IMG/VR virus record: IMGVR_UViG_3300045988_072096
Source of the DNA: a virus
Length of the DNA: 64,000 nucleotides
Strand: one strand, 5' to 3'
The translations under genes and the position numbers were made by a program. Under the pieces are notes generated by a model, which did not search any database, was not told the origin of the DNA, and worked only from the letters and a program-made list of their open reading frames with translations. Positions 26,517-64,000 of the stretch are shown piece after piece; within the stretch, counting starts at the first letter, position 1; every line of letters starts with the position of its first letter.

Positions 26517-26527
26517 CTTAGACTAAT

Positions 26528-27538: not shown

Positions 27539-28005
27539 GTCTTTTATACAAATTAGCAATTCCTCTTCTTGATAACGATTTACGTAAAGAGGATTTTGAT
27601 ACAAAAAAAGGATTTGTAAATGCATATTCATATAATAAGAATAGACCAGATTTAAATAATCATGTATTCTTACTATATGATGCATCTATTCATGATCCTG
27701 AACGTGAATATAGATTTATTAAATTAAAGAATTTATATAAGCGTTACGTTGAGTACATCGGAGATAAACCGTATTACATTTACGTATTTCCGTGTATAGA
27801 AAAAGATTTAAAAAACTTATTAAGTAAAGGTGTTAAACCAAAAAACGTAAACAATTCTTCACGAATAGTCACATTTTGGTGTGGATGGGAAAAAGACGTT
27901 AGTGATTATATGTTTTATAAATCATATACATTATATAACGATTGGGAGTCCGTGCCAGAATACGACTACAGAAAAAGTGAGGCAGAATTGTTATTATGTC
28001 AATAA
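27535..28005 (+). CDS. Hypothetical protein (156 aa); last gene of the plus-strand module
   Basis: ATGA overlap with the upstream gene. TAA stop. Confidence 0.65.
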   Translation: MSLLYKLAIPLLDNDLRKEDFDTKKGFVNAYSYNKNRPDLNNHVFLLYDASIHDPEREYRFIKLKNLYKRYVEYIGDKPYYIYVFPCIEKDLKNLLSKGVKPKNVNNSSRIVTFWCGWEKDVSDYMFYKSYTLYNDWESVPEYDYRKSEAELLLCQ

Positions 28006-28112: not shown

Positions 28113-31100
28113 TTAAACACCAGGAAGTCTGGTATCGATAATTTCGTATCCGCCGTTTTCTTTTATTCGTTGGCGCTTTTCCTTAGCCTCTTTAACGTTC
28201 GTATAGAAATCTTTGATTGGAGAAATCTTTGTATACCATTTTAGTTTCTACTTAAGTCCAATTATACTTAGAGTAGACCACACATTATGCGTACCTAAAC
28301 TATTAAATGTATACATTAAATCTCTGAATATTTTCGGCTTGTGTTGATATGTACCATATCCTTTAACCATTTCCCATTCTTTATGTTTGATATAATATGC
28401 AATATCCTTAAATACATTAATTATATATCCTTTTTTATCCCAGTCTGAAGATGCTGCAGTAATACTGGTTATAATATCTAACAATGTATCTGGATTCAAC
28501 ATAGTCATTCTTTCAATTCCAAGACGCATTAGTATCAAATCTATTAATTGTATTTTCCAATCATCTGGATTATCTAATGCTACTTTATTATGAAACGCAA
28601 TACTAGCTCCCATTAGCACAATTATAATAGTCATTTCTGTAGCAAGTCTCTTTGCAGAATATACATCTACATCAGCAATATTTAATTTATCACGCATATC
28701 GGCAGTTTCTTGAGCGTATTGGCTTGTAAACGGATGTGTAGCAGCCCATTTTAAATACCTTAAATATTTATAATCGGTAGATTTACTGAATAAGTGAATT
28801 AAAGCATCTACTGCACGTCTAGTTGCACCACTTTCAATCATTCCAGATTGGAAATTATACATACCCATGTCTCGCGCGTATTCTTTAGATAATCTTTTAC
28901 GGTTGATCTTTTGTTCGTTTTCTTCGTATAAAGTGTCATCTTCTATTTGAAAATCTCTTCCGCCTTTCCATCTATCCCATATACCAGCTATCATAAACGT
29001 ACGCATAATAAGTGCCATTGATGATAATAGATTAGACTGCATTTTTGTAGTTTCAGTCGCACTGGGTTTTAATAAATACGTCTATATTCTATTCTAAAGG
29101 TATTTTTGTATATCCATTTCAGTTTTTTCGTCAATAGCTTTTCCATATTCATTATCTCGTTTTATCAATGCACCATTCTCAGCTTTATATGCACTAAATA
29201 ATGTATGGCTTCGCATACGTTTAAATTCGTCAATAGCCTCTTCTCGAGTCATCTATCCTGTAGAAACCATTTCTTGTATAAACTAGTCACGCCTGTAATA
29301 TTTACCATTATAATACCTATACTGTTGAAATGTAATTGCTGTACATTGTGCTCCAATCATATATTCTCCTAATGAGAATGGACACATCAGCATATCAAAC
29401 GTAAACATTTTATTCAATATAGTTTTATCGGCTCTATTATACTATATTGCGCCTTCATTATGCACGTTAAAATGATTCATAGCTGTAGGTATCATACTAT
29501 AACCATTACCTATGCTATATGATTGAGCACTTCCTATACCAGCTATCATCGATGGAACTGCGCATATTCCAGCAAATGTTCCAGATACATATTCCCACGG
29601 AGTCATGTATTTTCCAGCAACGGCTTCTACTGCTATACTAATAGCAGGGTCTATCCAGTTAATAATACCAGGTATCATAGATAAAGCTAACAGACCGGTT
29701 TGAGATAAACTTTTAATCTTAGGAACGATTTTTAAGAAAAACTTAGACTGTCTATCGTTGTATACAGCAGGATTGTTATCATCAAAATCAAAATTACGTT
29801 TTCTGTCGTAGAACTGTCTATTTATCATTCCTCTTAGAAAATCTCGTTGTCCAGTGTGCAAACTATCATTCGATTTAAGCTTATTATAAATCGTTTGGAA
29901 TAACGGTAACATTTTCGTCTTATATTTATAGTTCAACGACATTTCGTAGAATTTCATTACAGAACCGAATACGTCACCAGTTATTGAAGTCGGGTCAGCC
30001 AATCGCTAAATATATCTAACCGGAACGTTCATAGAACGAGTTCCATCTGGACGTAACTCAAAATCGCTATTAACATCAGTATCTACCTCCGTAATAGAAA
30101 AATTGCGACTAAACATATATGCACCGTTTTTTAGAATACTGAATGGATGTCTCCATCCAAATTGCCTAGACGTAGCGCCTATTTGAGGGAGTCTGTTATC
30201 GTATTCATGCAAGAATCCTATATTAGACCACGCTTCTTGCATTGTTTCCATAAGTTTGGTGTAATAGTTGTTTAAATCTTCATTTTTTGCAATTTGTTGT
30301 GCAATAGGATTAGTGTAAGATACACTACCACGACCAATCGTATTGTCAGTAAACGGCTACATTGTTACTTTTGATGTTTCGTCAAATCTGGTATCAACCC
30401 AATTAGGATCGCTATTTTCAGCATCCAACTTAGAGTATAATTGCGTAGGCTGTTTTACTAATGCATCTATCCATTTGCCATCAATGCTGACTTTACTAGC
30501 TTTAGGTGCAGTAATAGTAAAGATACTAAGCGGTTTTAATGTATTATCGTTTACGTCTTTGAACATGAATTTTGCTATTTCCTATTGTACTCTAAGTCCG
30601 TTGTTTGGATTATTAGGGTGTTCGCGCTCTATGCGCAGTCTAATAGACTGTTCTATTTTCTGTATCCACGGTGTTTTTAATCCAAATTTATCTTCGTACT
30701 AAGCAGAGATTTTTCCAAGTAATTCAGCGTATCTTTCAGCCTAGTCTTTTGATACTTTATTACCTTTAGATATTTTATATCTTTCTTTGGAGATTTGTTC
30801 ATCAAGTTTTTTAAGATTTTCAAAGAACGGTTCATAGCCATCACGAATTTTTCCATTCTCCAAATCAAATACCTTTTCAATATTAGGATACGAAATACCT
30901 TTTAATTTTATCAGAGACATAAGTTTTCTACGCTTATTCTACAAATCCTCAAGAACTTCTGATGTCCTGTTTCCAAATATTTTTGCAATTTCGTCCCATA
31001 TTTTTGGGTTAACTGCAAGATACGTATTATTCTGTTCAAATAATTGTTTATTTGCAGCGTGTTCATATGCAGCTTTATATGATTCTTCGTCTAATTTATA

Positions 31101-34100
31101 AGCGACTTTATCTTTTATAAACATTTGCCATGCAGATAATTCATCTGCAATCTTACGTTCTACAGTACCGATTTCTTTTTCTTTTCCATTAGAATCGTAT
31201 ATTGAAGATAATTGAGCCTTTTGTCTCTCTAATCTAATCAACTCACGTTGTTTCGATATTGGCAGCAAATCTGTTCTTGTAGGCCCTTCTGGAAGAGATT
31301 TTCTGATGGCATTTATATCTCGATCTATTTGTTCCTAAGCTTTCAACGTAACAGATGACAACATATCGATTCGTTTATCGTAGTAAGCCTTAGTAAATCT
31401 ACGAACACAATGCGTAGCATACCAGTCATTTAATTTGTGACGATATTTCTTTTCAATATCTTCGCATCCATCTGGAAACATTATTTGTCCATCATCATCG
31501 AATTGTAATTCATAGTCTTTATTACCTAATCTATCTGCTATCTGCTATTCTACGCCGTCTTTTCCCTATAATATGACGTTTAAGAATTTATTAAGCTCTC
31601 CATAAAACTTTCCGTAGTTGATTTCAGTAACCCAGTTACCAGTAAATCCGTTTTCATCTTTTTCCATGAAAAGTTTTTCAACATTAGTTATGAGCTCCTT
31701 CCATTTACCTCCATTTGCTGCGATGGCTTTTTTACGGAGAATATTTAGTTCTGTACCACGCTTTTTGACTTCATTATTTCTATCATTAGTAATGGTATTT
31801 ATAATATCTCCAAGCATTCTAATGACAGGTGAATTTACATGCTGAGTTAGTCCAACAAATACCTGGAACACATTCATATCTCCAAATACATTTTGGTCTT
31901 CTATCCAAGTATGCATACTATATTTCATACGTTCCTTTAAATCGGTAGAAAGGTTAACGTTTTTATCAACATAATCATCAACAAATGCATAAATCTGTTT
32001 AGATATTGCATTTTCATACAATTGCTCACAATCAGCGATAATACTTTCTATTCCAGCTTGTGATTGTGTGCCCTTTAACATATCTAACAAATGCTGTTTA
32101 ACTTCTTTTCCGTAGTATAATTCAAATGTTGGATCTGCTAATGCGCGGTTTAATTTAGATATAACATTTCTATAGAATTCAATCGTATTTTGCTTATACT
32201 CCTGTAAATCTTTAAACGTTATTTCTTTATCTTGAATTCCTTCTTTTCCTTGCTCATTTATATCAAGATACTGTATTCTGGTTTCTCCAGTATTTGGATC
32301 GACTATTTCTCTATAACACAGTCGTTTATACTTACCCAATTCTGCAGCACGTAAGATATTTATCATCTCTTCTATTTCGTCAAACGCTCTTTCTGCAAAT
32401 CTTGTTATCAGCTTAACATTCAAATCAATTTCTCCACCAGTATGCGACATATCGCGTTTATCTTGGTAAGATAGACGCTTTTTATTTAGATCTTTGACAA
32501 ATGCTTCACGTTGAACACGTATTCCTTCAACAAACTTTCTAACCTCTTCTTCTGCTAATTGCATATTCATCAAGGTTATAGGATTTTCCTAGGTCTTACG
32601 GTAAGATTTATTTCTAGATATCGTTCCTGTTATAATATTTTTTATAGCACTTTGTACTTTGTCACCAAGAAGCGCCTAATATTCTGGATTATTACGAGCC
32701 TATATTCCTTCATGTTTAGCTTCTTTCATTAACGCTTTTATGTCTTTCTTTTTGAACATTCGCTAATCGGCCATTTTAAATAACAAACGCTCTTTTTCGT
32801 TCATTTTTTGTTGCTCGTTTATTGCGAATGCTATAGCCATATTATTTAATAAAGCATTGCGTGTAAGACTATTGCGTATTTTAAATGTTTTATATAACAT
32901 TGACCCAAATCTAGTCCAAAAATGTGCAAAGAATGAATCGTTGTTTGCATAATCCATGAACTAATTGTCCATAGTTTTCATAGTAAGTAGATCGACTAAA
33001 GTTTCTTCACGTTCTTCGTCAGTCATTCCTTCTTTATTTACAGCACGTAATGCTTCTTGTACCAGTTTACTGCGCCAAAACATACGTAAATAATGGTGAG
33101 CCATCTCATGATTAAAAGTAGATGGGTCTGCTGAATTCAAAGCTATTCCTATTATATGATGCGCCATAGTCGATTTGGTATTATAATCATAATATCCATT
33201 TGCATCATCTAGATATTCAAAGAATTGAACTAATAGCGAATCCTTCCCGTCTGCTGTCTTCCATGTGCCGTCTGACTATCTATGTAATCCAAATGCTGCT
33301 GCTAATCGTAACTATGTAGATTGCATTATTTTGCTTTGTTGCTATTCTACAAATTTATATCTAGCGTCTTCTACAGCCTACATAATGTCCGTATTTGGAT
33401 CTTTTTCCAATCTTTCTTTTACAGCTTCTACTACAAAATCATCTTCTGTTTGAGATAGTTTTGTTAAGATAGTTTCTGTTTCAGAGTCCTATTGAGATTC
33501 AGACTCAGTAGATTCAGAGTCAAGTAATTCGTCTACATTTATGGAATCATCCGCATACTTTGATACAGCCTGTTTTGCAATTTCCTATGATTGATCGAAT
33601 GTATATCCATTATTATCCAAAATCTATAATACAACGCCTTCAATCTAAGATTGTGAGTTTTTATGAATAGAGTTGTCGATAATAGATACAACATTTTCTA
33701 AAGCGTTATTAAATTTATTTTCATCATACGCAGGAATATATTTAAGTAATTCCCTAAAGTTTGGATTTGATACAAATTCTGCAATGAACTCGTGTTCGTT
33801 TTTAAGTCCATATACGTCGAGCATTGAAAAATATCTTGATTTATTAGCATTGTCGTATGCATTTAGGTAATCTACATATCCTCTAAGTACTGCTTTTATT
33901 TTAGGGTGCTCGTCTATATATCTACTAGTAACATAATGTACCGCTTCGTGTATTATAATATTACTTATGTGCGTATAACTACGAACGTTATTATTTAACG
34001 ATATGACTTGCCCGTCTTCATCGTAGGAACAAACGCCACCGATAGATTCGTATTGTTCATTGAATTTAAAAAAATAAACTTTACCGTTTGTATATCGTTT

Positions 34101-35297
34101 CAACGTACTAAGCAAACTACCAATATAAGTTTTTTGTTTGCCTTCCGGAGTAAAATTATAAATAATATTTACCAGATTGGATAGCGAATTTTCTTTTTTC
34201 AATAATCCTCTAACGAAGTCAATATTATATTTATCTTCAAATATAGCAGAGTCTCTTGCGTTTTCATATATAGCACGAGAGTTCTTAGCTAAAGAATTAT
34301 CGTATATAGAAGCATATTTAACAAACTAGTTATATAATTTGTTTTTTATCTTATCTGAAACATTTGGTTTAATATCTACTATCTACTTAATTCTTTGCAA
34401 TTTGTTATATTTTTGCTACAAAGCCATTTTATGTAAATTATGGCCTTCTATGAATATCTGTATCGCAGTATAAGCTTTGCCTTTTTGAGTCATTAATTGA
34501 TGTTTATAATGTCCAAAATACTTATTAAGCTGTGCTTCAGTTATACCTGCTTTAAACAAATTTGGAAAGAATTGTCGTATTCTCTATTGTGTTATTATAT
34601 CATAATCAGATATATCAGTAGTGTGTTTTCTTAAGAACGATAGCATGTTTTGGACATACCATTCTCCATAAACAGACGAATTGTCAAGCTATTTTTTATA
34701 CTCAGATATTTTTTCCTAAAGTACTGGTTGTAAATTTTGACATATATAGTCTATTCTATTGTACACATCGTCTAATGATACGTCACCTTCTTGTACACCA
34801 TCTAATTCATCTCTTGTAAATAAACCTACTCCAAGTAAATCTCTTACGTAGTCATTGTATCTTACTAAAAAATTACGATAATTGTCTACATCTTGCAGTT
34901 TTCTTAGTTTACCTTTTGTTATTCTAAGTTTACTAACAAAATTAACGTAATAATCCAATAAATCTTCTGGTATATGTTTTTCTATCATTCCAGAAAGTGG
35001 TTCCCTATTCTCATCTTGGAATACTGTATCCATATTAAACCAGTCACCAAATTTACTAAGGAACTATTTTGTGAACACTTTAGCTTTTGAAGCAATTGCT
35101 CCAGCTATCATTCCACCATGTATTTTAAGTAGGTCTTGAAATAGTATAGAAGGCTCCCCATTGGGAGCCATGTCTATACTGTTTCCATTATTTTTAGACC
35201 ATATATCGTAGGCACCTACTTCTCCTACAACGTCTTTAATCTAATTAAATTTCTCAGCAACTTGTGGTCTACTGAGTATTGGACACATTATTGCCAT
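28113..35297 (-). CDS. Giant late protein, 2,394 codons if TAG is read as sense (~36 TAG); carries two zincin HExxH motifs
   Basis: Ten track fragments (28248..35033) share one frame. In every gap I scanned, the only stop triplet is CTA(+). The ATG at 35297 lies 5 nt after the upstream TAA. The true stop is TAA 28113-28115. HEAVH at 33936-33950 and HEMAH at 33096-33110. Confidence 0.75.
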
Positions 35298-35302
35298 ATT
35301 AT

Positions 35303-38300
35303 TTATCCTTTACAATGTTTACGTACTGTATCATCAAATTTATCGCTTGATTTAGCTTCTTCTTTTTCATTTTGTAATTCACTTCTAGCTATCGTTAATG
35401 ATTTCGTAACTCCATCTTCATTACCTTTACGTATTATTTTAGCACTTTTTGTATTCAAGAGCTGTTTTAAGATTTTAGGATTCTATTTAAACGATTCTTT
35501 CATATTGTCAACCATCATGTCCACTGTAACCCTTACACTTTCATCTCCATATTGAGCTCTAGTGTCATTTAATGTTTGTCGCATTACAGTGTATGCTGAA
35601 GAACTATGCAATTCGTTTAATATTTTATCTTTAGCGTCTTGTGGAATCATCGAACTGTTCATTACTGCTTCACAGTAATTAGCCTGTATTACATTATCAT
35701 ACTATATACCATTTTTTGTAAATGGCCTATTATACGTATTGCCAAATTGTTCAGCGTCTTTATGAGACAGATCGATCGGTTTTACTTCTTCTATATCATC
35801 AACATCGAAGTCATCATTCAATGAAGTATCTGATTTACCTTTTTTCTCGGAAGATTCTTTTTCAGATTTTGAATATTTATCAATTAAAGCTTGCATATAA
35901 TGCAAAATCTCATCTTCATCGTTCTATAAATTCTCTGACTTCTCTAGTGATTCAAGCTTTGCTTTAAAGCCACTATAAATATCATTTGGAGATCTCTTTA
36001 TTGCATCATAATACAGTTGTTTAACCTTTTCTGCAAAATCTTTAGCACTAAGTTGTTCTTTTTGTAATTCTTTAATCCTCTCGTCTTTAACTTCAATGTC
36101 TTTAGCTCGAGATTTAAATTCATCAAGACTTTCTTCTTTTACTTCAGATTTAGCTTTATTTAAATCTTTTCTAATCTTAGTTAGTATCTTACTTAATACA
36201 CCACCTTGCTGTTCTACACCTTTAGAATTCTCATGAGAAATTGTCTTATCACCAGTATCTAGTAATGCCTTTTTAGCTTCTTCATTCTACTGGAATGATT
36301 CTGTCATATATTTGGCGAGTAATTCATTATAGTCGTCACTCCACTTATTTGTATCAAGACCTTCTATATTCTTACCATCTTTACGTGCTTGTATTGCTGA
36401 TTCATCAGAAACTTTTTGCAATTTATCAAACAGTTCTTGTCCTTCGTCTGTTAAAATAATGTTTCCAGAAGCATCTCTCTCTTTTACATATTTACCTTCA
36501 TCTGTATATAATAATTTAGTAGCCTAAATAGCGCCTTCAACAGAATTAAATTCAAACTTGCCTAACCCGTCTATAGTAGCAGTAAACTTACGCTCTGATA
36601 GATTACTAAGTTCTCTATGTTGATCGTTGCCATAATGTACGTTTACAACCTTATCATTAGTTTTCTTATCGGATTTTTCAGTAGATTTACCTTTAGATTT
36701 TTCATCAGAACGCAATTTTATACGATGATCTTCATCTATATATTTACTGATTATCTCCTGAAGTTTAGTTTTAGTGACGTCTAATTCGTTATACTCAAAT
36801 TCATCACCTAAACGTTTAATTAATTCAGTTTCAGTAAATAAAACCGGACTATTGTTGATAAGATTTGCAAATTTATCAATAAGAGTGTCTTCTGTAAATG
36901 GCTTATCTGACATCAAATGCTTACCGCTGAAGAATTTGTTTATAGCTTCTACTGTAGTATCATCATACATAACCGGTCTTGTATATTGTGGTCTAATATA
37001 ATCGTAATTATAACTTCCTGCACGCAATGTTGTAGAATTAGGTATAGTAATTGCGTATATCGGATAAACGCCTTCTCCTGCACTTGCAGTATTTAAAGGT
37101 TTTGTATCTACAAGGCGATACAGTATGAAATTATCTGGGTCATATTTATCAAATCCGCGTTGTCTTACTTTTATAAATAACGGGAATTCCTACATTCCAG
37201 TTTTTTCATTCATAAAAGGTTTTATTGTAGAAATACGTTTTCCGTCTTTAGGGTTTGTTTTTACACATGCCATTAATAAATTGACAGTCTTAGATTTTGA
37301 TCTTGTGATAAAACTAGGTTTCCCGCCAGATTTACGCTGTTTCTGCACTAATATTTTCTTTGTAGAAACAGCTTGTGTGTAAAACGAAGCCTGCCATGAT
37401 TTATAACGTTTAGTTCTAAATTCACGTACGATTTGTGGATCTGTCCAGTTATTATAACAAATCATTGCGTACATTTCATCAGAATCCATCGGATAGGTTC
37501 CATCCTTAAAGTCGTCTTGTGCATTCGCCATTAAATCATTATATCCAGAATCAATTCTAATTGTGTTTGGAGCATACTTAAAGAACTTAGTTCCGCCTGT
37601 AGTGTCACCAGAAGTGTAAAACGCATATACAAATAGGTTTTCAGCAAATTGCTTAAATGTAATTTTCTGTTCTCCGTATTCTATGTAATGTTCTTCATCG
37701 TGATAGAGTTCGTCCCATGCGCGTTCTATTGCATTAGCGTTGTCACTATCATCGAGAACTGCATTTTCCAATTTTATGAATTTTGGATTAGCATACCCTT
37801 CTCTTTCTTGATATACGTCAGCCTATAATGCTTTTAATAGGGGATTTATTATAGTTCCATTAACACCATAACTTGCAAACGAACCTTTCTTGTCATTTCT
37901 GATTTTATTCTATATCTTAAGTAGCTGATCTTGAATTGTATTATCGCCAAAAAACAAGCTTTCAGCATAATCCATAGCTGTCATTCCTCTATCTTCTGCA
38001 TAGTCAGAGACGATGTCATCATCAAATATAAGCTATTTGACAACTTTCATCATACATCTTGATACTTTTTTGCTCAATTCTTTATTTTGTTCAGAAGAAT
38101 GGAACTTTGCCATAAGATCACTATGCATGTCTCTATATTGTTCAGTTCCTTGCATAGAAATTTGACTAATTATACGTTCATATAAGCTTAATGCATTATT
38201 CGTCTTTTCCCCAATAAACGATTCGTTTTTAAGTCTATTAAGACCGTATTGTTCAAACAGTCTGTCATCGTTATCAAACACATCGTTGTATTTTGACTTA

Positions 38301-41300
38301 AACGCCTATTGTTCAACATAACTCTTACCTTGTTTTTTTGTATCAATTTTACAAGCATTAACTAAATCAGAAAGTTTTTGTCCATATTTAGACATTTCCT
38401 AGTTTATATATGCCACGTACAATTGTACTTGTTTTGGTGATAAATCTATTGTTGTATCTACAAGTTGGCCATCATCGTTCTATACTTTAACATTAATTCT
38501 ATATCTAGAAATCTTGTCTTCAAGATTATCAAACGACAATTCTTTATTTATATTATGTAAGACGTCCTTATTATTAAATATATCTTCAAGTATGCATCCA
38601 GATTTTGTTATAATCTCTCCATTATCTTGGATATATTCAAACTCGTTGCTATATGAACCATCGTCATTTATTCCAAATAATGCTTTTGCAAATGATGCTA
38701 TTGATTCCTCTACGTCAGTATTATTATTTCCAATATCTTGTAATGTCTTCTTTATATTTTTAAGATTTCCTGTATTTGCGGCATCTTTAAAGTTATCGAG
38801 TATATAGTTAGTAACTGCAAATCTTTGTCTAGCAGCTTTGGATATAGTAATATCCTCCATATAATTTCCACCTGCCGTTTCGTATACAGAAGCAAGCTCT
38901 TTCATAATAGGCTGCGATAAGAACATAAATGTACGCTCTCCCATACCTGTTCTAACTAATAAGTTAGTTGTATTATACGTAAACGTATTGATGTTTAATC
39001 GCTATATATACGGATCTTTGGCTACGTCCACATGAGCATTAATTAATCCTGATAGCCAAGATAATTTTAAATTACCCTATTTATCTTTAAGACTGCTTAA
39101 ATCAAGACATCCTAATTCTCTAAGAAGAGGACAATGGTCTGAGTCAAATTTAACACCATATAGCTGAGTTAAAATTTGACTATTGTTATTTAACGCAAAC
39201 GGACCAATTCCGAATTTACCAACCACAAAGGATCCTCTAGTTCGTACCTAAAATGCAATATTACCAAACTTATATGCATATTCTTCTTGAGCCTATTTGT
39301 TTGTTTCAATTTTAGCCAATACGTTCTTGACAAGATTTGTATCTGAATCGATAGAGCGTAAACTGATACCTGCACTTGCGCCATTTACAATTCCATTCTT
39401 TCCGAGATCTTTTCCATGATCTTTTAATATTGTAAGATAATAATTAAGAAGATTATTTCTAGATTTATCTTCAGAATCTTTCTTAAAATCAGTCGATACT
39501 TTGTCTATGGTAATCTTCTTTCCATTAGATTCTACCTCAATCTTATATGACCTATAACTTAATCTTGACAAATACAGTTTATCGATGTCGAAGTCAGAAC
39601 CCGTAACCATTGTGAACTCTTTAGGAAGTACTATTGTATCTCTAACTACTGGCAAAACATCAACGAATCTTAATGCATGAATTGAAGATTGAGCCTGTGT
39701 AGGAATACGTGAAGCTATAGTGTTAGCTTTAGCATCTTTTCCTATAATCTTATTCTTTATAAGCCACTTTCTACTTGCCTCAAAATCGTTTTTAAGACCT
39801 TCTGGTATTATATCCATAAAGAAATCTATAGATATAACAGCGTCCATACTTCCTTCCTCATTGACAAGCTTAAGTTCGTTTCCATCATTAATTGTAGGAG
39901 AAAGTTGGTCGTCACCTAATATAGTCGGTTTACCTTCCATACTCCAGACAGATCTTTGATAAAAAGCATTTCCTTTTACATTAATGTCTACTATCTTTTT
40001 GTTTAGCTTTGCTACAAGTATACTCTGTATCCAATCGATAGAGGACATTGCTTCAAGATTAACTTTAAAATGTTTCTTTCCATCATTATCGACCTCTACT
40101 TGAATGCCATCAATCAAATTTTCATCAGCATCACGTGATTCTAATTCTTCTTCTAGGAATCTACTAAACTTTTCGATGTCTAATTCTCCAGAATCGTCAA
40201 ACATCTCACGCTCGAGTTCTTCCATTCCGTACGTAGACAAATTATTGATCTCACGCATTATTTCTCGCAATAAATCTCTACCACGTAAAGTCTTTCCATC
40301 TGGAGTAGTATACTCTTTATTTTGTATAAGACTAGTAAGCGCAACTTTCGTCATCTGTGTACCCATTTGAGCAAATTGCTTTTCATGAGGATCTGTATTC
40401 AACTGTTTACGTATGAATTTATATTCTTGATCATATGTATCAAACTAGAATGCTTCAAATGCCTCCTTGTCGTTAAGTAGTTTCTCTGTCAATTCTGCAG
40501 GAGATTGAGAACCTATCTTAACGGCACTATGCATCATTAGCATATCTATGTGTTGAGATTCCATTTTACTAAGTATTTGTTGAGTATATCCGGTGGCCAT
40601 TTGCTTGAATAGTGGGAATAATGCAAACTTATTATAGTACTGTATTTTTATATCTCCTACAGGTCTATATCCATATGCACTGTATTTTTGTGCACCAAGC
40701 ATTGCTTCGTATATAACTTTAAATGCCTACTTATTACTAAGAATATTGCTTTTTCGCTTACCCTCTAGATATTCAAAGGCCTCTCTTACAGGTTGTGTAT
40801 ACTTTCCAAGTTGACGTAATAAGTTTTTAGCCATTTTTGGTGTTATAAATGCAGCACCGTCTGCCACATTTATCTAAGCTCTGCCTTTTTTATCAAGTCC
40901 AAATGAAGATGCTTCGTCTTCACCACGCTTTTTTGCTACATTAAATAAAGTAATCTAACCAGCAGACTCAAAATCATTCTTGATTTCATCAAGAGACATC
41001 TCATTTACACCATTTTTTCCATATATCCTATCTGCAAGTTTGTCTAATTCATCTTGATCAACTATATCCTTAGACTTATATTCATAATAAATTTGACGTA
41101 TTTCTGCATCTTGGAACAAAGAATTAAGCATATCCAATTGGTTAGATACAACCATTTGATCTTCTACTTCTGCGCATTTATATTTGCTACGTATTCCAAC
41201 CATATATGGCCTATTTCTTTCTCCAGTAGAGCCAAGACCACCAAGACGCTTAGTTTGATCGCTATGTCTATCTACAAGACGTTTTACGCCATTTACAATG

Positions 41301-52903: not shown

Positions 52904-52908
52904 AACTA

Positions 52909-54606
52909 TTAATTTATTCTAGCGTCTTCAGTTGTTCTGCTCGCTTTATCGTTAAATAACTTACCAATATTTACATCCATAGATTCAGTTTCTGGAGCGG
53001 ACCTATCGTCATAATTCGGGTTTATAATGAAATCTTTATTTTTTACATCTACAGAGCTTCCTTGAGTGGTTATATGAGTATCGTACCAATATGTATCTCT
53101 TGTACGATTCCATTTTCCAGATTTCTTTATTGCTTCATTACCATTAGCGTTCATCACATCTTCATCGCTCTTTTTATACCAAACTTGTGTTTCAGCAAAT
53201 GTTCTAACTTTACCGTCTTTACATAACGTAGTCAATATTTTTCCGGTAGGCCTCATTTTATAATCATAATTATTGAAATCAACACTCTTATTTTGTGACA
53301 ATACGGTGGTTTCGCCGGAATTGAGTTTAACTCTGGCCGTTCCGTACATATGGTTAGATACAGCTTTTGCAGAATATAATCTATTACCCATTGCGTTAGA
53401 CAAAGAAACTGTATTATCTGGACCGACATTTAAACCTAACGACTTTGATACATTTGACGCTAAATCAAAGGTACTCATATTACGTAAAAATTGAGTTCTA
53501 GTGTTAAATCTATTTGCATGTACTTTCTTTCTCTAAGCGGTTTTGATATCTAATGTCAACTATTTCATATTATCCGTTTTACCAGAATTAATATCTTGCA
53601 ATAACGATTTCTTTATATCATTTACACTTCTTCCACTAATATGTGCGAATCCTGCAAACATATTCTCAGATATGTGCGAATGTCCTTCACTGCCACTACC
53701 GTCACCGTTTCTATATTTTGCAGCTTCTCTAGCATTTATTTCAGCCATTGTGAGCGCATGTTCATATTTTTTGAGTGCAAACGGATCTACTTCATATTTA
53801 TCGGGAGATAAATAACGCATGTTCGCGTCAGCTATACGTCTATCTAATATATCATATGCTTTATTAATAAGCTCTTCTTTAGACGCATTCGGATTTTGTT
53901 TTGCAGCTTGTTCTTGTGCCAACTTCCACTCGAATGCACCTCTTGGAGTATTGATGAAATCTTGAGCGTTTGATTTTGCAGCGTTCAACAGATCATTATA
54001 ATCATATGAATATCTTCTCTGTCCATTTTTCATGCCTTTGTACAACGGCTGACGTCCTTTGTATATATAGTCCGTAACCTCTCCTAATCCCTAGAATGGA
54101 CTAAATGTGCTATTGTATACACCGTCTTTAAGTGTATCCCAATCTTTAAAGCTAGCTCTACCGGCTTGCTGATCTAAGAAATCTTGATAAGCTTGACTAT
54201 ATAAACCTTTAGATTCAAGTTCGGCTTTAACCTTCAACGCATTTAATCCTTGCAATGCAGATGCTTTCAATTTAGCAAGTTGCCCACCAGGAGCTGCTGC
54301 TATAGTCTATGCAATCCTAGCTCTACCTTCTTGGCTACGTATCATGTCTGGGCCGTAATTCTATAATAAATTACGTATTGGTTCATTTACTAGTTGATCC
54401 CAGTTCTCGTTATCTTTCTCATATGGACTATAGAATTCGCCATATTTACTATTATATTCTTTTAAATCCTATGCAGCTTGCATATAATCTTGGCGCACAG
54501 CATTTGCATAATTCTACTGTGCTGCCAAGAATAATTGTGCAGTTGCAGGATCAAACATGTCATCTATCTTATAGATAACAGGTTGTTCTTGTCCTAGTAT
54601 ATTCAT
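52909..54606 (-). CDS. Late virion-module protein, 565 codons (7 in-frame TAG)
   Basis: Fragments 52909..53478 and 53560..54045 plus an upstream stretch are in one frame. ATG at 54606. TAA at 52909. Confidence 0.7.
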
Positions 54607-54613
54607 TGCTATA

Positions 54614-57016
54614 TTATTTATATAGTGCCGTATCAATCCGTGGAATTAAGTTTTGGAAATAGTATGGCTAACTATTTCTCCACTTGTTATATTGTCTAGA
54701 ATAATCTGTTAGTGGATATTTCGGTGCGCTCAACTAATACATTATAGGAGTCTTCTTTTCGTACATTGGAGTACTTGTTGCCATGTATTTATACAATCTA
54801 TCACCAAATGATTGTCCAAATGGATTGAAACTTATTTTAGCTTCTGTACTCGAACCATTCTTAGCTTTATTTGAACTGTTCTTAGCATTAGCAAGATCTC
54901 TATTGAAACTCCTTTCTTCCAGATCTGCTTGACGGTCATATAAGTCAATAAGTCTATTATTATAATCTTGAGCGCTTTCAAATTCTTGTTGCTGGAATAG
55001 ATTCTTTCCGAGTGCTCCAAGCATATTAAGTCTACCTTGGTTAGCATTCTCCATACCAAGCAATCTACGTGCTACAGCCTCCCTATAAGCTTGCTGTTGC
55101 TGTGCAAGAGCAGTTTGTTGTCTAGCAGCATCTTTCTCACCAGCCTCCATTAGCGCTTGTGCATAAGCTTGTTTGTACTTATTATTAATATCGTTAGCTT
55201 CTCCATACAATTTGGCCATATTCATCATATAGTTGTTACCATGTGCAGCTAACATTTTAGTACGCTGTCCTGCACTAAGTCCGCCTTGTTGGTTTATATT
55301 ATAGATACCTTGTCTATATGCATCACGTACCTATTGGGCTTGTTGATACGGATCAAAATGCATTTGCCCAAGTATACTCAATGCTCTATCTGCATTACTA
55401 TTACGAACATAACTATTAGCAGCTTGTGGAGCTGAATTTTTATAATAGTTGTATTGGCTGTTAGGTATTCCGTATGCTCCAGCATATATTAATGGCTATA
55501 GCCAATTTAAATTAAATTTACCTTTATCATACTGAGGCATTGTGCCGTCATATATATTCTATATCTTATGTTGCATTTCTTGTCTATTTAACGGTTCTTT
55601 CGTGCTTTCTACAAGCTGCTATTGCATCAAGTCTAACTGCTTGAGATTAAGCTCTTTAGTTTTGCTGTCAGCATTTTTATTAGACTCAATTAACTTGCGT
55701 AATTTTTCATTTTTGGCATACTGCTTAGACATAGGAGCTACTTGATCTGCAAATGATTTTCCATTAGTCCAGTCTATATCGTTACCTGCAATGTAATTAT
55801 TGTCGCCTTCTTGTACTGAACTATATTGATCATCTGCACGCTTTTTACCTTTGTCTATATAGGTCATCTTACCTTCATCGAAGTTTACAATAGTCTCTCC
55901 TTTGCCAACCTTAGAGTTTATCGGACCAAGACGATACCCATCTTTATCGAATACCATTCCATATCTACCTTTGCTAGGTTGGTCTATTAAGTTATAATTT
56001 ACAGCTGTTTTTCCTCTATCGGCATTGTATAAAGATGTACCAGTATAAGCATCATTATCGAATTCATTTCTAAGTCCTTCTGATGCTGCTACAGATTCAG
56101 CTTGTTTATTCTGATTAGCGTAACTTGAAATCAAAGCTTCTTTTCTGCGTCGTAATTCGCGCTTGCGTCGTCTACGTCCAAATAATGACCCTATGCCACC
56201 TATGAGACCACCAATTAATCCACCACCAATGATTCCAAGCGGACCGAGCGATGTACCAAGCAACGATCCTACTGCTAGTGCAGATCCTACACCAGCTCCT
56301 GCTCCAGAAATACTATTTGATAATATTCTATTATTTTCTCCGTATTTCAGCATTCTATCGTACGCAGAAGTATCTCCGAGGTTTTTAGTAGTATAATCAA
56401 CTCCATTTACAGATTGAGTGATTTCATTGTGACTTTGGTCCATCATGCCTGAAGTTGGAATACTCGGACCTTTTGCCAAACCACTTCCGAGATTATATAA
56501 TCCGTATGCAGCACCTGCTGCACTTAATGCAGTTCCAGCAGTACCTCCTAAAGCTGATGTTGCTTGTTTTGTAGTCTCCTATATTGATTTCTTGGCAGCT
56601 TCCTATCCAGCCTATTGCGCTCCAGCGGTTATTGTACTCCAAGGTGCGTTATCTATTGTATTATTTACGGTCGCCTTAAATGCATTATTCATCATAGTCT
56701 TCGCAGAAGCATCCAATGATGATTTAACAGCTTCTTTACCTGCTCCCGCCATTAACGATGAATATTTTAACGCACCAGTCAATGGTTGTTTTAACACGGT
56801 AACATAAGGCATACCTGTACTTACAGCACCTTGCAATGATGGTTTATACATGCTGGCCTCTGCGGACATATCTTGTCCTTGCTATATTGAAGGAGTACCT
56901 ATGTTAAAGTTATCACTTTGCTAATAACCAGATGCAGTCTGTTTTGCTGCTAAATCATATCTAGGTAGTCCGTTTCGTATTTGTTTATATTGTAATAATC
57001 TATCTCTTTTATTCAT
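54614..57016 (-). CDS. Late virion-module protein, 800 codons (11 TAG), with a Gly-zipper hydrophobic segment followed by an Arg/Lys cluster
   Basis: Fragments 54734..55255, 55619..56479 and 56612..56869 are in one frame. ATG at 57016 lies right after the upstream TAA. TAA at 54614. Contains GAGAGVGSALAVGSLLGTSLGPLGIIGGGLIGGLIGGIGSLFGRRRRKRELRRRKE. Confidence 0.7.
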
Positions 57017-57018
57017 AA

Positions 57019-60000
57019 TTAATTGTATGATTGTCTAAATTTGGTTATTATATGTGATATTGCATGATCGTTGTTATTACTATTCATCAACAGTTCTTCT
57101 ATCATCCATTTACCACGTAATCTACGAATTCTATCTGCACACCTTGGTATCGGGAAGCATATATTTCCTTCTCTATTTGTATATTCATCGATCGTTCCAG
57201 CTTCATCTAAATCTGTATAGAGATTGCAGTTGAAATTATCGTAATCAGCAGTTTGTTTAGTATGACTCGAAGTAGTATTATATAATTGCGGGAAGACTAT
57301 TTGCTGATTATCAAATACTTTTGTAACTGATGCATTTGGATTTACTACAAAGTTCAACCTGGCTGTATCATCATTAGTTGTTGGAGTTTCGCCATCATTA
57401 CACCAACGTGTATATGCTGCAAAATTAGATCTTATCGAAATTGCATCAGTCTGATTTGTTAAATTATTATATACTGTAGCTAATTGCCCATTTAACACAT
57501 CATACATAGACTACGCTATACCTAATTTGCAGTTAAATGCTAATGTCATTTCCCCGATTAAAATAGCATTATTTTTAATCGGATGAAATAATAACTCGTC
57601 GTTAATTGCGTCATACGTAATTGTAGGTACTTGAACGTTGTCAGTAATATTTATCTACATTAGCGTCTTTACATTACAACTTTCTGTAAAGTCTACTACT
57701 GACATTTTAGCACCACCATATGCGCCAGATGTAGCTTTGTATGCTGCGATACATTTATTGCCATAATCAAACCAATATATATCATTGTCGACATTTACTT
57801 TACACATATCCTGTGCCCTCATTCCAAACTTGGTACTCAAGTAATCGAATCTCTGTAATACAGTTCCCTATCCAAGTTGTATAAGGTTACTGTTTTCATC
57901 TTTGACAAGTGAGCGTTCATTAACAGATAACTTACCGAACGCTTTTGTTTGCCAGAAATATAATGTATCTTGTGCAGTAAGCATGTCAGTTAATTCTCCA
58001 TATGTTGAATTAACATCTATATAATCTACAGGCTTAAATATATTCCAGCTATTTAAAAGTTCTCCATTGGTCTTTAGCTGTGAATAACATATTCTTTGAG
58101 AATAATTATTTTCCAATCGCTCAGTACTTTGTGGTGAATATAGATCATTGCTAGTTCCATTATCAGAATAAATAAGATTATACTGATGTACCGGTCTATC
58201 TTGCGAAGCTACACCCTTTATTTCACCAGCTTCAGCTTGTAAGTTAGCGTTATTTGTATTACGATAATTCATTCCATAATCGAAATACTGGTTAATAGTA
58301 CTCTCCATTGGGATGTAGTGTATTGTCTACATAGATTGCAATGAACTCTTATCGTCATTAAAGTCATATGCCTTATACATACCTTCTATCTCGTATATCT
58401 GTGTATACGTATCACCAGTAAATATATTTATCTTATTGACACCATCTGATGAATACGCCTTATAATCACCGAATCCGTAATATGTATCATATTGTTTAGA
58501 TGACATATCTTTGCCAGAATAATGAATAGCTGGATGTGTAATTTCACATAACAATGTACCAGGATAACTATTTAATTTAGATATTTCTTCAGGGTCTTTA
58601 TAATCTATATTACTATCAGGTTCAGGATGTGAATATATTAAAGTTCCACCATAATAGGATGGAGTAGATGCGTTTTCTATAAGATTAGTCGTTATAACTT
58701 CTCCAAATACATTTTTTAGAGAATACGACACTGTAATATCTTCAAACGGTATTAAATCGTCTAATGACTATTTATCATTCGGCAATTGTACTATTAAGCA
58801 CCTTGCTGCAGGCCCAATTGGTCCAATTGATGGATATGTTCTTGTTGTATGTTTGCCGGAATTATTAACGTTTGTAAACTCGACAACATTTTTCCAAAGA
58901 CTAGTGGTCCATCCGAATTCATTATTTGTCCCTACAGGAATATCATATTTACTACTACAAACCCAATTCAAATAACTAGATGTTGATATATTTTTAGCGT
59001 ACGATTTGTACTTCTTTACGGCATTTTCTAATACACTGCCATTTGTTACATGATTGGAAAATCCATCCTCCCAATTGAGCATTTTCACGCTAGAAATATC
59101 TTGTATTTGTTTATAATAATTGTTTTGATTTAACTTAAAGACTGTTTCTTTCGTATAAAAGACATTGTCTATATCTGCCTTGTCGTCAAAAGCCCTAAGA
59201 TCTAAATTATCCCAAACCTGTGTATAATCATCGGGATTTAACATAAAAAATCTTCTAGAATATACCGTATTTGTAGAGTCTAAATACTATAATTTGTTTA
59301 TTTTATTCGATTTGTCTGACTTCGAGTAACTTAATGTTTTATAATTTATATTAGTATATTTCCCAAATGTATAGTCATGTCCAACTTCTATCTATGAGTA
59401 ATCACTATTTTTTCCTATTAGTGGAATAAAACTTAATGAAAAGATTTTATTTTTTTGTGCCCGATTCGATACATTTATCTATTGCTCAGTTGAATCACTA
59501 TATGCGTCATCTTTTGTAAATTTTACAATTCCGTCTGTTGTAGAAGAGTACAAATATAAGGAGGGGACTAATGAAATCTAGTTTACCTTAAGTTTGTTTA
59601 AAACATTATCCACATACGTCTATATTTCAGGACAGTATATCTGATATAACATGTTATCAGAAGCACCACTTGTCATTTGTTTTGGCCATTGCGTTGTAAC
59701 TGCTCCGCCATCATAATCACACGGAGTATATCCAATATACTAAGGATTGCTTATAATAAATCCAGTAGGATAATATGGAGAATATGTACCATCGACAAGT
59801 TGTTGCCTAACAGTGCTTGCTATCACAACTTGTTGTAGAGATCTAGAATATTCATTTGTACGTTGACAACGTACTATTTCGTATCCGCATATATTATTGT
59901 CAGTAGCAAATTTTTTAAACGCTTCATTTAATGTAAATTCTATACCTATCTGTTTTGTAGTATAGTTTTTGTTCAATTCAACTATATCCGGTCCAGGAAT

Positions 60001-61710
60001 TCTAATGTCACCTATCCATACCACGTCACTTCTTGTGCCATCATTCTTATATAATATTATACCATAGCGATATACTTCACCACGTTTAAGCGACTTAATA
60101 CAGCTGCTTGTAATAGCATTATTATGTGATACTTTGTCTGGTTCTGGGAAACCACAATCGGAAATAATATCCGTCTCTTTTGGTGCATTTACCTAAGATT
60201 CGTCTTTTCCGGAATATTCAAATTTGCCAGACTAATTATTATAATATATATAATCTGAATTATAAGTAATGGCTGTTTCTTCATCGGTGACTACGTTTGC
60301 CACTAATAACTTCCATGAAATGTAAACACCACTGCCACCGATATAATTATTATAATCGACCATTACATTATTAAATGGTTCATCGAATTTATGGTTTATA
60401 TCAGAATATGGGTTTGAATAATCTGCTTCATTAAACATAGGATCATTTATAAAAGCAGTTATCCTAGAATCTACGTCAGTTGTTTCTTCAACACTAGTTT
60501 CTACATGATCGTAAGTAGTTGGTACGAGATATGGAATGGTATGAGCATTATGGTAAATTGGTATAAACTATATAGCCCAGAATTTCTTAAGATCATTTCT
60601 ACTTAATTGGAATGTAGTAGTATCTTTAACGTTTCCAGCGAATAAATAGCCTTGATTTTGTTCAAGTAGTTTAGGTATAATGTCCTGTCCATGTATCTAA
60701 GCGAACTCTTCCACGGATATAGTCTGTAAAGTCTTACGCCCGTTATCTATAACACTAATATTTGTGCCTGTAAACTCACCGTCATATATCAGATCAATCT
60801 AAGCATTCTAATTAGGTTTTATATATTGTATTCTATATACCTGTAGCCTATCGAATTGATCTATCTTTTCATCAACTGCTATTCCTAACTATAAACCTAT
60901 TGACGTAACTGTATCTTCAGCACAGCCAATTTCAGTATCACGAGAAGGATTTATGACTTGATATTTACGACTCAATGGTGCTAACTTACTAGTTACTCCA
61001 TATTTCTTATAGAACCTATAAGTATATTGTACCTATGAAGCTTTAAGTTGTCCTCCTACGATTGCCTTATATGTAATAGCATGTTTTGGGAAATACCTAT
61101 TTTGACTAATTAAATCTATATCAATTTCTCCTTCTGTTTTGTGGGTTGTTTCATCTATTTTATACAGACTTTTAATATAATCAGTATCCTTTACATTGAT
61201 TATCATTATCTTATGCTCGCCGTCTGCAATGTATAAATTTACTACAGCATCGGTTTCATACTGTAATACTGCCGAAACATTTCGCAAGTCAACTGCATCT
61301 TCTACTTTTTCTCGAATTTTTATCTTGCACAAGAACGTCCATCTATATCTTGGTAATTCATCAGAAGCCTCTACTTTATACAAATATACGTAATTATTAT
61401 GTAGCTTAATTAAGATATTAGTGTCTCCTGATGTAATTATTTTTATTATCCGCTGAGTTTTATCGTCGTCGAATTTAGGTACAATCTAAGTCGTATAAGT
61501 AATGTCTTCATTTAACGCTTTAACTGGAGTCATTACGCCGTATTTTCCATATGCAGCAATATCATTAAAGCTATTTATTTTCGACGTACCATACGGGCGT
61601 AAATTAATAGCATATATGTACTGGTTATTTTTAATAGTGTCATACGCAGAATCAGTATTCATACCACCAGTAAAAGTATTTATAAACGTATTATTCTGTT
61701 CAGTAGCCAT
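57019..61710 (-). CDS. Large late structural (tail-type) protein, 1,563 codons (~20 TAG)
   Basis: Nine track fragments (57019..61773) share one frame and all gaps were scanned. The ATG at 61710 (MATEQNNTFINTFTGGMNTD) overlaps the upstream TGA. TAA at 57019. The tail function is inferred from size and position only. Confidence 0.7.
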
Positions 61711-62563
61711 AGTAATAATCATTATATAAAGACTGTTGTTTACCAATATTACTAAAGAATGTTTCATCACCATCCCAATCTGGTATTAACTTATTCCAGT
61801 CTCTCTTTATGTTCTGCATATCATCTGCTGTAGGCATCATAGCTTCTGCATATGCTTGATTTCTATAAAAATTCCATTGTTGCTGTAAGTAAGAATAAAC
61901 AGCACCATTATTGTTCACACCTTTACCGCCGAGCTTTCCTTTAAGGTATTTTGAAAAGTTTATTTTCATTACTACATACCAATATATTGCCTCTTGATAC
62001 GATGTCGTATCTGGGATAAGCGGATAGCCACGTTCATCTGTAGCGATTGCTTTATATTGTAATTTAATGTACCCATCTCGCATATTAGTAGAAATCCAAC
62101 CTGGCTTAATAAAATATTCTGGTTTTTCATTAAGTCTATTGCGCAAATACTTCATTCCGTTTACTGTAGCAAACTGTGATTGAGTGGTTGGATATTTATA
62201 CTTCATCTACTCGTGTTCGGGCTTAATTTCTTGCCTTTCTGCGGCTAAATTATTTGGGTCTGTAGGAAGTACGTATTCTTCTTGAGCCTTAGGTATTTGT
62301 TTGCTTTTAAACAATCCTGTAGCAGTACTCATAGGCTGCCATGGTCCATTTTCATTCTTAGAATATGCCACACCATCTAATACAATTAAATCGGCAGGCA
62401 TCGGTATTTGATAGTCTTGTATTTTAAATATAGGTACGCCATCTATGCCAGACTCTCTGACTATATACTGCATAGGTGCGCCTATCTTTTCAGTAGCTTC
62501 AAATATCCATTCTCTAATATCCTCAATACGCTATCTTACCTCAGGCGAATCGAGGTCTGCCAT
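61700..62563 (-). CDS. Late protein, 287 codons (2 TAG); an alternative ATG exists at 62608
   Basis: Fragments 61700..62206 and 62207..62473 are joined by TAG. The true stop is TGA at 61700. Confidence 0.65.
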
Positions 62564-62588
62564 AATCTTAGCTATGACAGCCTCACAC

Positions 62589-62993
62589 TTAGTATACTTG
62601 TATATCATTGATATCTATATAATCTTGTTTGTTGAATATTAACTAAGCTAGTTTACGTTTATTCGCGCGTACCAAATTAAGTTGATATCTATATCTGTCT
62701 GGGAACACCCTAGGTATCTTAGACCAATATAATCTAAATTTATACCCATCTGAATGTTCATTTAAGTGATATATTCGCTTACCGTACTCTTTACTAGCTT
62801 TATAATCTACAGATAGAGACTTGCTATCATAGTTCTTAGGTCTATATTTACCAACCTATATCATACCTAACCCATAAGGCATTTTAAAGCCTTCTGAGCG
62901 CATGAATACGTGTTCTAGTATAATCTAGCACATACACTCTAATATGCGCTTATACGTAACGTAATCAACCTCTATCGGCATTCCTTTGTACAT
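62589..62993 (-). CDS. Late protein, 134 codons (3 TAG); invisible in the standard-code ORF track
   Basis: Hand translation gives MYKGMPIEVDYVTYKRILECMC*IILEHVF..KRKLA*LIFNKQDYIDINDIQVY with a TAA stop (* marks TAG). Confidence 0.55.
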
Positions 62994-63012
62994 GTCTCTA
63001 AATGTAATTGAT

Positions 63013-63723
63013 TTACTATTGTTCATCTTGTGGCCCATGCGGTTTAACACTAGCTAATGTAGCATTATTACTATCATCGCTAGGTCTATTTAACATAAAC
63101 GACAGTTCGTTTTTAAGTATATTATTCTTGATTGGAGGAACTAACCATGCTGGTATCTTTACTTCATCCTCATCGATATCATCTCCATCTTCAGCATCTT
63201 CTATATCTTCGTATACAGCCATTACCCAAATATACTTAAATTTACTATCATCAGGCAATCCTTGTACGTATATATAGCCTCCGTCATAGTAAGCAGTAAT
63301 AGCATTACCTGTATACTTTCTAAATGCTTGGTAATGTTTACGTACGTGATTCATGTATTGTATTATACAACCATTTTGATCATGTACGCTAAGTATACTT
63401 GATTCGTCGTTATTATATATACCTTCTAATTTTTCCTTGGTACGCTTAGTGTTGTTTGGCCAATGATCATCTTCTGTAGGATCTATTAACTCTAATGGAC
63501 CTTTTTCTCTAATAAATATATCATCTATATAATCCTCAAGCAGTTCATCGTCAACAGCCTACTCCTTCTATTTATCAAGCCTGTCTTTAAGGATCATCTA
63601 CTTATAAGCTCTAATCCAAACGGCTATTTGATGTCTTGACAAATCTTCACTTTCACTAATATTGTTATTGCGTACTATTAAAAGTATATCGTCTATGAAT
63701 TCTCTTAGTGAAATATATGTCAT
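63013..63723 (-). CDS. Late protein, 236 codons (4 TAG, the last one directly before TAA)
   Basis: Extends fragment 63016..63354 upstream to ATG 63723 (MTYISLREFIDDILLIV..). Ends ..DEQ-TAG-TAA. Confidence 0.65.
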
Positions 63724-63728
63724 AATTA

Positions 63729-64000
63729 TTAATTGTTTGATTCAACTATTCTTACATCTTTACTTTTAAGTAAGTCGTTTGTATTTACTATATTGTATTT
63801 ATACTTAGTAACTTTCTTAAAGTCCAATGTAAATAATCGTTTAAAGAAATTCTTTTTATTTTTATATTCTCTTTTAGTATATACGTATAAATATTGTTCA
63901 TTCTGTAAATCTATTGCTATATTTACAGTATCATTACCTATAGTATATTTAACTTTAGTTAGAGGGTTATATAATATACTATCTGTATATATACTATCTT
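63729..64000 (-). CDS. 3' end of a late gene (5' part lies outside the window)
   Basis: The frame is open from the window edge to the double stop TAA TAA (63726-63731). The next ATG is 2 nt downstream. Confidence 0.55.
   Translation of the reverse strand, partial: DSIYTDSILYNPLTKVKYTIGNDTVNIAIDLQNEQYLYVYTKREYKNKKNFFKRLFTLDFKKVTKYKYNIVNTNDLLKSKDVRIVESNN

Follow-up and report, generated by a model that had tools for sequence, protein, structure and literature searches.

The 64,000-nucleotide stretch of viral DNA analysed here (IMG/VR virus record IMGVR_UViG_3300045988_072096, hereafter the window) combines a minus-strand late module filled with in-frame TAG codons and a plus-strand early module in which TAG still occurs as a stop codon. 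We propose that the late genes read UAG as glutamine (Gln) through a phage-encoded suppressor transfer RNA (tRNA) and that the early genes are in the standard code, an arrangement that would act as a timed translational gate. We give this interpretation a probability of about 0.93. Its support from the present analysis lies in the TAG pattern, a Gln signal at the TAG positions, the lineage of the phage and a suppressor tRNA gene in the same genome.

In-frame TAG codons in the late and early modules

Open reading frames (ORFs) of the minus strand were called from stop to stop, with only TAA and TGA counted as stops. Eight back-to-back ORFs then occupy positions 28113-63741 with zero in-frame TAA or TGA. 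These are m1 (28113-35309, 2399 codons, 36 TAG), m2 (35303-52927, 5875 codons, 88 TAG), m3 (52909-54645, 579 codons, 7 TAG), m4 (54614-57073, 820 codons, 12 TAG), m5 (57019-61785, 1589 codons, 20 TAG), m6 (61700-62638, 313 codons, 3 TAG), m7 (62589-63089, 167 codons, 4 TAG) and m8 (63013-63741, 243 codons, 4 TAG). Counted from the likely start codons, they hold 171 TAG in 11,888 codons, that is, 1.44 per 100 codons and 26% of the Gln codons. The total is 170 if m7 begins at 62993, as does its orthologue in crAssphage cr131_1 (NC_055902.1), a genome to which the window is compared throughout. The initial annotation, made from the sequence alone, had counted about 170 in-frame TAG in about 11,800 late codons and no internal TAA or TGA; our count of 170-171 in ~11,870-11,888 codons agrees with it. 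It had also listed nine late genes ending at TAA or TGA. These correspond to eight complete genes, seven ending at TAA and one at TGA, and to a partial ninth gene that runs off the window end and finishes at TAA-TAA.

In the other two frames of the late genes, TAA and TGA make up 8% of triplets. The chance of a 5,866-codon run without either of them is about 1e-214. When translation table 11 is replaced by table 15, in which TAG is a sense codon, coding coverage of the minus strand goes up from 60% to 99.9%, and its longest ORF grows from 369 to 5,866 amino acids. The same change on the plus-strand half raises coverage merely from 76% to 80%. Because of this gain in coverage, the 5,866-residue ORF and the lack of in-frame TAA and TGA, the ORF structure is only sensible with TAG as a sense codon. 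The late proteins obtained by read-through are full-length homologues of known crAss proteins.

The plus strand, from 1 to 28005, contains 40 table-11 ORFs. Their ends are TAA in 25 cases, TGA in 9 and TAG in 6 (530-532, 4694-4696, 9473-9475, 12963-12965, 16304-16306 and 20860-20862). No in-frame TAG is found in their 6,959 codons, as compared with about 100 expected at the late-gene rate, and off-frame TAG is as common in these ORFs as in the late genes. The earlier statement that the plus-strand module has no internal TAG and that six of its genes terminate at TAG is thus borne out.

Could the whole genome use code 15 at all times, so that translation of the six early ORFs with a TAG end continues to the following TAA or TGA? 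A suppressor, once expressed, acts on any mRNA. Moreover, the RefSeq record of cr131_1 translates early genes with TAG as sense (e.g. NC_055902.1 78487-80373 and 86416-86985) and through their terminal TAG; in the DNA polymerase, this places one internal TAG right before TAA. However, the absence of internal TAG from the early ORFs of the window is hard to explain if TAG were freely usable as Gln. Extensions past the six early TAG stops amount to 0, 0, 1, 20, 31 and 44 codons, and the longest of them enters a conserved non-coding RNA region, described below, and contains a TAG-TAG pair. In related phages, metaproteomics yielded no recoded peptides among early-region proteins (Peters 2022, PMC9523058). 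We consider permanent use of code 15 over the whole genome unlikely. Nine TAG annotated as internal in cr131_1 early genes are probably true stops or belong to non-coding sequence, and one early annotation of this phage extends into the conserved RNA region. Use of code 15 for these genes extends them past more likely true stops, a point that calls for correction in RefSeq.

Two further features of the TAG distribution were considered and set aside. The first in-frame TAG lies at codon 8-75 in every late gene. This is what a density of 1.44% gives by chance, and we do not retain the idea of a designed early block. TAA or TGA occurs within one codon after 3/6 TAG stops of the window and after 4/34 other stops (Fisher p=0.055), a hint of back-up stops guarding the early TAG ends. 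In 14 diverse relatives, TAA or TGA follows soon after 7/30 TAG stops and 18/120 others (p=0.28), which does not support it.

Lineage of the window

A distant blastn search with gene m5 (4.7 kb) retrieved cr131_1 with 100% coverage and 77% identity. This phage, from rhesus macaque faeces, is classified as Crassvirales; Suoliviridae; Oafivirinae; Cacepaovirus simiae. The window corresponds to the reverse complement of cr131_1, from ~36.5 kb round to 3.8 kb, and gene order is alike. Nucleotide identity is 93-97% over 24 kb of the early region (3242-27571) and 84% at 54899-64000. Along with homologues of the tail stabilization protein and a giant ORF bearing a DFDID motif, these values uphold the crAss-like affiliation suggested at the outset. 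By these comparisons, the window covers about two-thirds of a genome of roughly 94 kb, which belongs to a crAss-like phage of the delta group (Crassvirales, Suoliviridae, near Cacepaovirus simiae). On its minus-strand half, the window holds the distal portion of the virion module.

The block encoding giant proteins (28113-54454) has essentially zero nucleotide similarity to cr131_1, and protein identity is 22-42%. It is a sharply mosaic cargo and RNA-polymerase region, fast-evolving or exchanged.

Exact 47-52-mers of the window gave no hit in IMG/VR and JGI metagenomes. A standard-code early protein, in contrast, led to a contig in ENA (ERZ28595212 scaffold_199, sample SAMEA2338819, 94,080 bp; hereafter L094) that is 99.98% identical to window positions 1-11,984. 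Because of this identity, L094 can be regarded as effectively the same genome as the window.

Suppressor tRNA and late leader

L094 encodes a tRNA with a CUA anticodon at 2281-2354 on the minus strand. This is the strand of the late genes, and 6.4 kb separate the tRNA from the left end of the window. cr131_1 also has a CUA tRNA, under the annotation tRNA-Gln, at 9258-9330 (+), by synteny just left of the window, and other relatives likewise encode one. The ten first late-strand genes of L094, around the suppressor tRNA, contain only 2 TAG, and the first eight late-strand genes of cr131_1 contain none. Since the genes around it are nearly free of TAG, the suppressor lies in a leader that is translatable before the code change. 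The split in TAG usage is therefore one between before and after the suppressor, by position in the late transcription unit, and not one between strands as such. The modules differ in how they use TAG rather than in the machinery that decodes it, and the code would change over the course of infection.

The proposed sequence of events draws on published work for its timing, for the charging of the tRNA with Gln and for its regulatory purpose. Early and replication genes, being in the standard code of the host, would be translatable on DNA entry. Virion genes, which encode the tail and giant packaged RNA-polymerase or cargo proteins, have UAG for about one quarter of their Gln codons. Until the suppressor accumulates, every late mRNA would terminate within at most its first 75 codons (8-75). 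The phage CUA tRNA, encoded near the start of the late unit in the nearly TAG-free stretch, would then accumulate and UAG would be read as Gln. Two meanings of TAG in one genome, separated by time, would in this way provide a translational gate on the late genes.

Of the possible components of a code change, only the suppressor tRNA was observed. The precomputed Pfam families listed for the genes around it in L094 include neither a release factor nor an aminoacyl-tRNA synthetase.

Some side observations concern this region. The suppressor tRNAs of L094 and cr131_1 differ strongly in sequence despite 93-97% identity of the adjoining early regions, which suggests a replacement of the suppressor gene. 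In L094, an unusual 83-nt tRNA-Ala(AGC) is called next to the suppressor tRNA. Near the same region, outside the window, the dUTPase gene of L094 carries a group I intron (518-734, minus strand; RF00028, 55 bits) with an HNH gene.

Identity of the amino acid at TAG

In the searches and alignments feeding the likelihood tests, TAG was masked as X, so that it exerted no pull towards Gln. Hits from homologous-protein searches were kept out of the residue tabulation, because their TAG may have been pre-translated as Gln and the argument would be circular.

A codon alignment of the six best-conserved genes with cr131_1 places TAG opposite window TAG 24 times and CAA or CAG 8 times; each of 12 other codons appears there once or twice. 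Seen from cr131_1, TAG faces window TAG 24 times and CAA or CAG 6 times.

We then compared 32 related IMG/VR loci, whose m5 homologue has in-frame TAG in 19 cases and lacks it in 13. An alignment of the m5 tail-protein family was built from 21 sequences, 13 recoded and 8 in the standard code. Residues opposite TAG are Gln (19%), Ser (8%), Asn (7%) and Thr (7%). This profile is near-identical to that opposite genuine CAA or CAG codons, with Gln at 23%, Ser at 9%, Lys at 8% and Asn at 7%. When the TAG columns are scored for each of the 20 amino acids, Gln comes first with a log-likelihood of -2.75, well ahead of His with -3.07. A comparison of all late proteins with all ORFs of the 32 loci gives Gln as the best fit in five of six strata. 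Direct tabulation in standard-code homologues at 23-35% identity shows Gln as the most enriched residue at TAG columns (2.3-fold), not the most frequent one; direct tabulation was replaced by the profile-likelihood test.

Overall, these data support the view that TAG behaves as glutamine in the late genes. They also show the preference for Gln opposite TAG in Crassvirales homologues that the initial annotation would have led one to expect. The three Gln-rich peptide contexts that it had quoted around TAG are present at 52720, 48718 and 48253.

Counter-evidence and other explanations

Several points weigh against the reading of UAG as Gln by a phage tRNA. ARAGORN detects zero CUA-anticodon tRNA in the 64-kb window. 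The one of L094 scores 29.8 bits with the Rfam tRNA model, for a threshold of 29, and ARAGORN labels it 'Pyl', a label that rests purely on the anticodon. Pfam searches of 38 early ORFs revealed no release factor or aminoacyl-tRNA synthetase family. In the 20-35% identity stratum, window TAG columns fit Ala, Thr or Ser better than Gln; this poor fit reflects alignment noise. Finally, the proteomic evidence belongs to the phages studied by Borges and Peters.

That the window itself lacks a suppressor tRNA could point to read-through that depends on the host, by a host suppressor or by inactivation of release factor 1. Yutin 2021 (PMC7886860) indeed reported that recoding and detectable suppressor tRNAs are not always coincident. 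The late-strand CUA tRNA of L094, with its counterparts in cr131_1 and other relatives, argues against a host origin, which we consider very improbable.

Slightly less probable still is that TAG stands for another amino acid (Tyr, Leu, Ser, Trp, Lys, Glu or pyrrolysine). The 'tRNA-Pyl' name and the low-identity stratum could be taken in this sense. However, all informative comparisons put Gln first, both as a residue and in the fit of profiles, TAG is one transition away from CAG, and Gln was identified at TAG by proteomics in related phages (PMC9523058). In addition, Pfam scans of the early ORFs and of m1 and m2 reported no pyrrolysine-synthesis family.

Assembly or sequencing errors, or decaying late pseudogenes, have a negligible probability, since one type of stop codon is in frame some 170 times and TAA or TGA never, 24 TAG positions are common to the window and cr131_1, window positions 1-11,984 match an independent assembly at 99.98% identity, and the same pattern recurs in dozens of related contigs.

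Reading of UAG as Gln by a phage suppressor tRNA thus remains our preferred explanation.

Late genes

All late genes are on the minus strand. PHROGs and Pfam provided little functional information on the giant proteins. m1 (28113..35297; 2,394 aa, 36 in-frame TAG, TAA stop) is a giant protein of virion or cargo type and weakly resembles cr131_1 gp47. A weak Pfam match to a SprT-like HExxH metallopeptidase covers residues ~408-457.

m2 (35303..52903; 5,866 aa, 87 in-frame TAG, TAA stop) is a giant RNA-polymerase-type protein. A NADAR domain (PF08719, E=5e-13) is located near its C-terminus, at residues ~5427-5558 (window ~36230-36625). Deep inside the ORF, at window ~39595-39581, we find the sequence GSDFDIDKLY, of which GSDFDID is presumably the DxDxD catalytic motif of the crAss virion RNA polymerase. 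The cr131_1 counterpart is split inside this DFDID motif and annotated as three genes, gp50, gp49 and gp48. There, gp50 closes with '...ITGSD' and a run of unrelated residues, whereas gp48 opens with 'MFDIDHLY'; the insert between them (NC_055902.1 60.2-61.1 kb) encodes gp49, of 242 aa. This insert is probably a group I intron bearing a putative homing endonuclease. Since the cr131_1 gene is broken within GSDFDID, the 5,866-aa ORF of m2 is the uninterrupted gene, not a read-through artefact. We also considered whether m2 might be a gene fusion whose junction contains a leaky TAG. This is ruled out, as the junction is an intact GSDFDID and the interrupted gene is that of cr131_1.

m3 (52909..54606; 565 aa, 7 TAG, TAA stop) shares 42% identity with cr131_1 gp51, and m4 (54614..57016; 800 aa, 11 TAG, TAA stop) shares 91% with gp52. 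m5 (57019..61710; 1,563 aa, 20 TAG, TAA stop) is a tail stabilization or virion structural protein. It has 295 homologues carrying PF25729/PF25731, under the UniRef name 'Stabilization protein'. m6 (61700..62608; 302 aa, 2 TAG, TGA stop) belongs to phrog_33740 and is 98% identical to gp54. m7 (62589..62993; 134 aa, 3 TAG, TAA stop; phrog_12177) is given here from the ATG at 62993. An alternative ATG at 63077 would yield 162 aa with 4 TAG; the alignment with cr131_1 gp55 begins at residue 29 of this longer form. m8 (63013..63723; 236 aa, 4 TAG, TAA stop) is a virion structural protein (phrog_9863) with 97% identity to gp56. The ninth late gene enters the window by its 3' end only (63729..64000), with TAA-TAA at 63731-63726.

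A practical consequence for annotation is that table 11 breaks the nine late genes into some 50 fragments and hides the 5,866-aa RNA-polymerase-type protein altogether.

Early module

The replication and early module (1..28005, plus strand) is in the standard code, and its helicase, sigma factor, polymerase and primase are all intact. Pfam identifies a sigma-70-family factor with regions 2 and 4 (10016-10579), which is a candidate for redirecting the host RNA polymerase, as well as a DnaB-like helicase (21435-22373), an AAA_24 ATPase (22888-23637) and a PDDEXK nuclease (26528-27538). The DNA polymerase (18979-20862) and the primase (24804-25781) are assigned from the cr131_1 annotation.

ARAGORN finds three tRNA genes in the window, tRNA-Met, tRNA-Gln(UUG) and tRNA-Leu(UAA). 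The tRNA-Gln (UUG) is a phage gene of the early module (3741..3812, plus strand). Two RAGATH-1 hammerhead ribozymes are predicted by Rfam on the same strand, at 2500-2606 and 3562-3631, with 62.5 and 68.1 bits, above the gathering score. They precede tRNA genes by ~100 nt each, the first that of tRNA-Met at 2713 and the second that of tRNA-Gln(UUG) at 3741. This arrangement suggests ribozyme-assisted tRNA processing in the early module.

A two-piece (permuted) gene resembling transfer-messenger RNA (tmRNA) is called by ARAGORN at 8567-8947 on the plus strand. Its predicted tag is GNYNVVDYTHVA, ending at TGA. The match to the Rfam tmRNA_permuted model has an E-value of 2e-6 but, with 40 bits, falls short of the gathering score (47). 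The cr131_1 annotation includes a tmRNA at the equivalent place, and the tag peptide given by ARAGORN for this phage is identical to GNYNVVDYTHVA.

A probable large structured RNA in the early module

Region 12966-15122 (plus strand, 2.1 kb) contains no ORF of note in any frame, either with table 11 or with TAG or TGA read-through. Its nucleotide sequence is conserved well beyond the adjoining genes. The identity is 75% over 98% of the length in Chuhaivirus cr130_1 and 68-70% over 40-49% in Burzaovirus and Buhlduvirus. The region always occupies the same unannotated gap, and synteny is kept in at least 4 Oafivirinae genera. In all, 36 full-length copies of it were collected, and a 22-base motif taken from it occurs in 51 IMG/VR contigs. 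In a genome collection, the motif is found in four contigs, two of which are ~101 kb long and binned with metagenome-assembled genomes of Segatella copri.

Secondary structure was predicted with RNAalifold from 15 non-redundant copies with pairwise identities of 50-93%. Block 13040-13720 has 88 predicted pairs, some of them long-range, and 45 of these show compensatory double changes. Pairing is observed in 94.6% of cells, as compared with 81% in shuffles. The number of double-change pairs drops from 45 to 29 in shuffles (0/500 reach 45), and sliding of the 3' partners leaves 12-19. The covariation score amounts to 0.43, as against 0.06-0.10. A second structured block, at 14100-14520, has 62 pairs, 25 of them with double changes. 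Many conserved G-U pairs assign the RNA to the plus strand.

No Rfam 15 family matches window 12900-15150 with E up to 1, and full-text literature searching returned no description of this RNA. That the region forms a genuinely structured RNA is well supported by these covariations, and it is probably a new large phage RNA. More tentatively, the region may encode an undescribed RNA of ~0.7 to 2 kb which, with the tmRNA-like gene and the hammerhead-flanked tRNAs, might be part of an RNA toolkit used by these amber-recoded phages for the takeover of host translation; we rate this reading as a whole at somewhat less than even.

Comparison with known recoded phages

The recoding described here is real, ordinary for its clade and already known; it involves no new principle. 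Recoding of TAG to Gln in late genes, with suppressor tRNAs, was described in beta, delta and zeta crAss-like phages, where it is confined to the late block (Yutin 2021, PMC7886860). The genome of the window shares both features and is one more of the delta group. The division of such genomes into blocks with different codes was also recognized in the Mgcod preprint.

The initial annotation had pointed to the TAG density and the clean split between strands as notable. Both are real. They are not unusual, because cr131_1, other genera and published phages are alike in these respects. The split follows position in the late unit. In the ten late genes of cr131_1 compared with those of the window, 137 TAG are found in 11,519 codons, that is, 1.19% (1.44% in the window). 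Homologues of the tail protein in other genera have 15-31 TAG in ~1,400-1,600 codons (1.1-2.2%).

cr131_1 resembles the window closely. Its late genes are annotated through 221 in-frame TAG, and it has a tmRNA-like gene, tRNA-Met, tRNA-Gln and tRNA-Leu. It differs by the splitting of the RNA-polymerase gene in the DFDID motif and by a suppressor tRNA sequence distinct from that of L094. For specialists, useful points are the location of the suppressor tRNA in a nearly TAG-free leader, its divergence between two close phages and the application of code 15 to early genes in RefSeq.

The TGA-recoded Jade phages and the RF2-encoding Lak and Agate phages (Borges 2021/22, bioRxiv 10.1101/2021.08.26.457843) are similar to the window in having standard-code early genes and a late block recoded at a stop codon. 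The code-change module of the Jade and Lak type includes a release factor and/or a synthetase, neither of which is seen by Pfam in the early ORFs of the window.

Similar in organization are the crAss-like phages of Borges and Peters, such as the 94-kb L3_063_250G2_scaffold_974_curated. Like the genome of the window, they have a recoded structural block, replication genes in the standard code and a suppressor tRNA. Gln was detected by metaproteomics at TAG in structural proteins of two such phages, with none recoded among the early-region proteins (Peters 2022, PMC9523058). Borges 2021/22 proposed for late-block recoding a model based on timing and the gating of lysis. Lysis genes, the most TAG-biased according to that work, probably follow shortly after the right end of the window (35159-36126 in cr131_1, where the window end corresponds to 36465). 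The phage studied here would add to the documented cases in which the code of the host cell is changed during infection to gate the translation of virion genes and, in related phages, of lysis genes.

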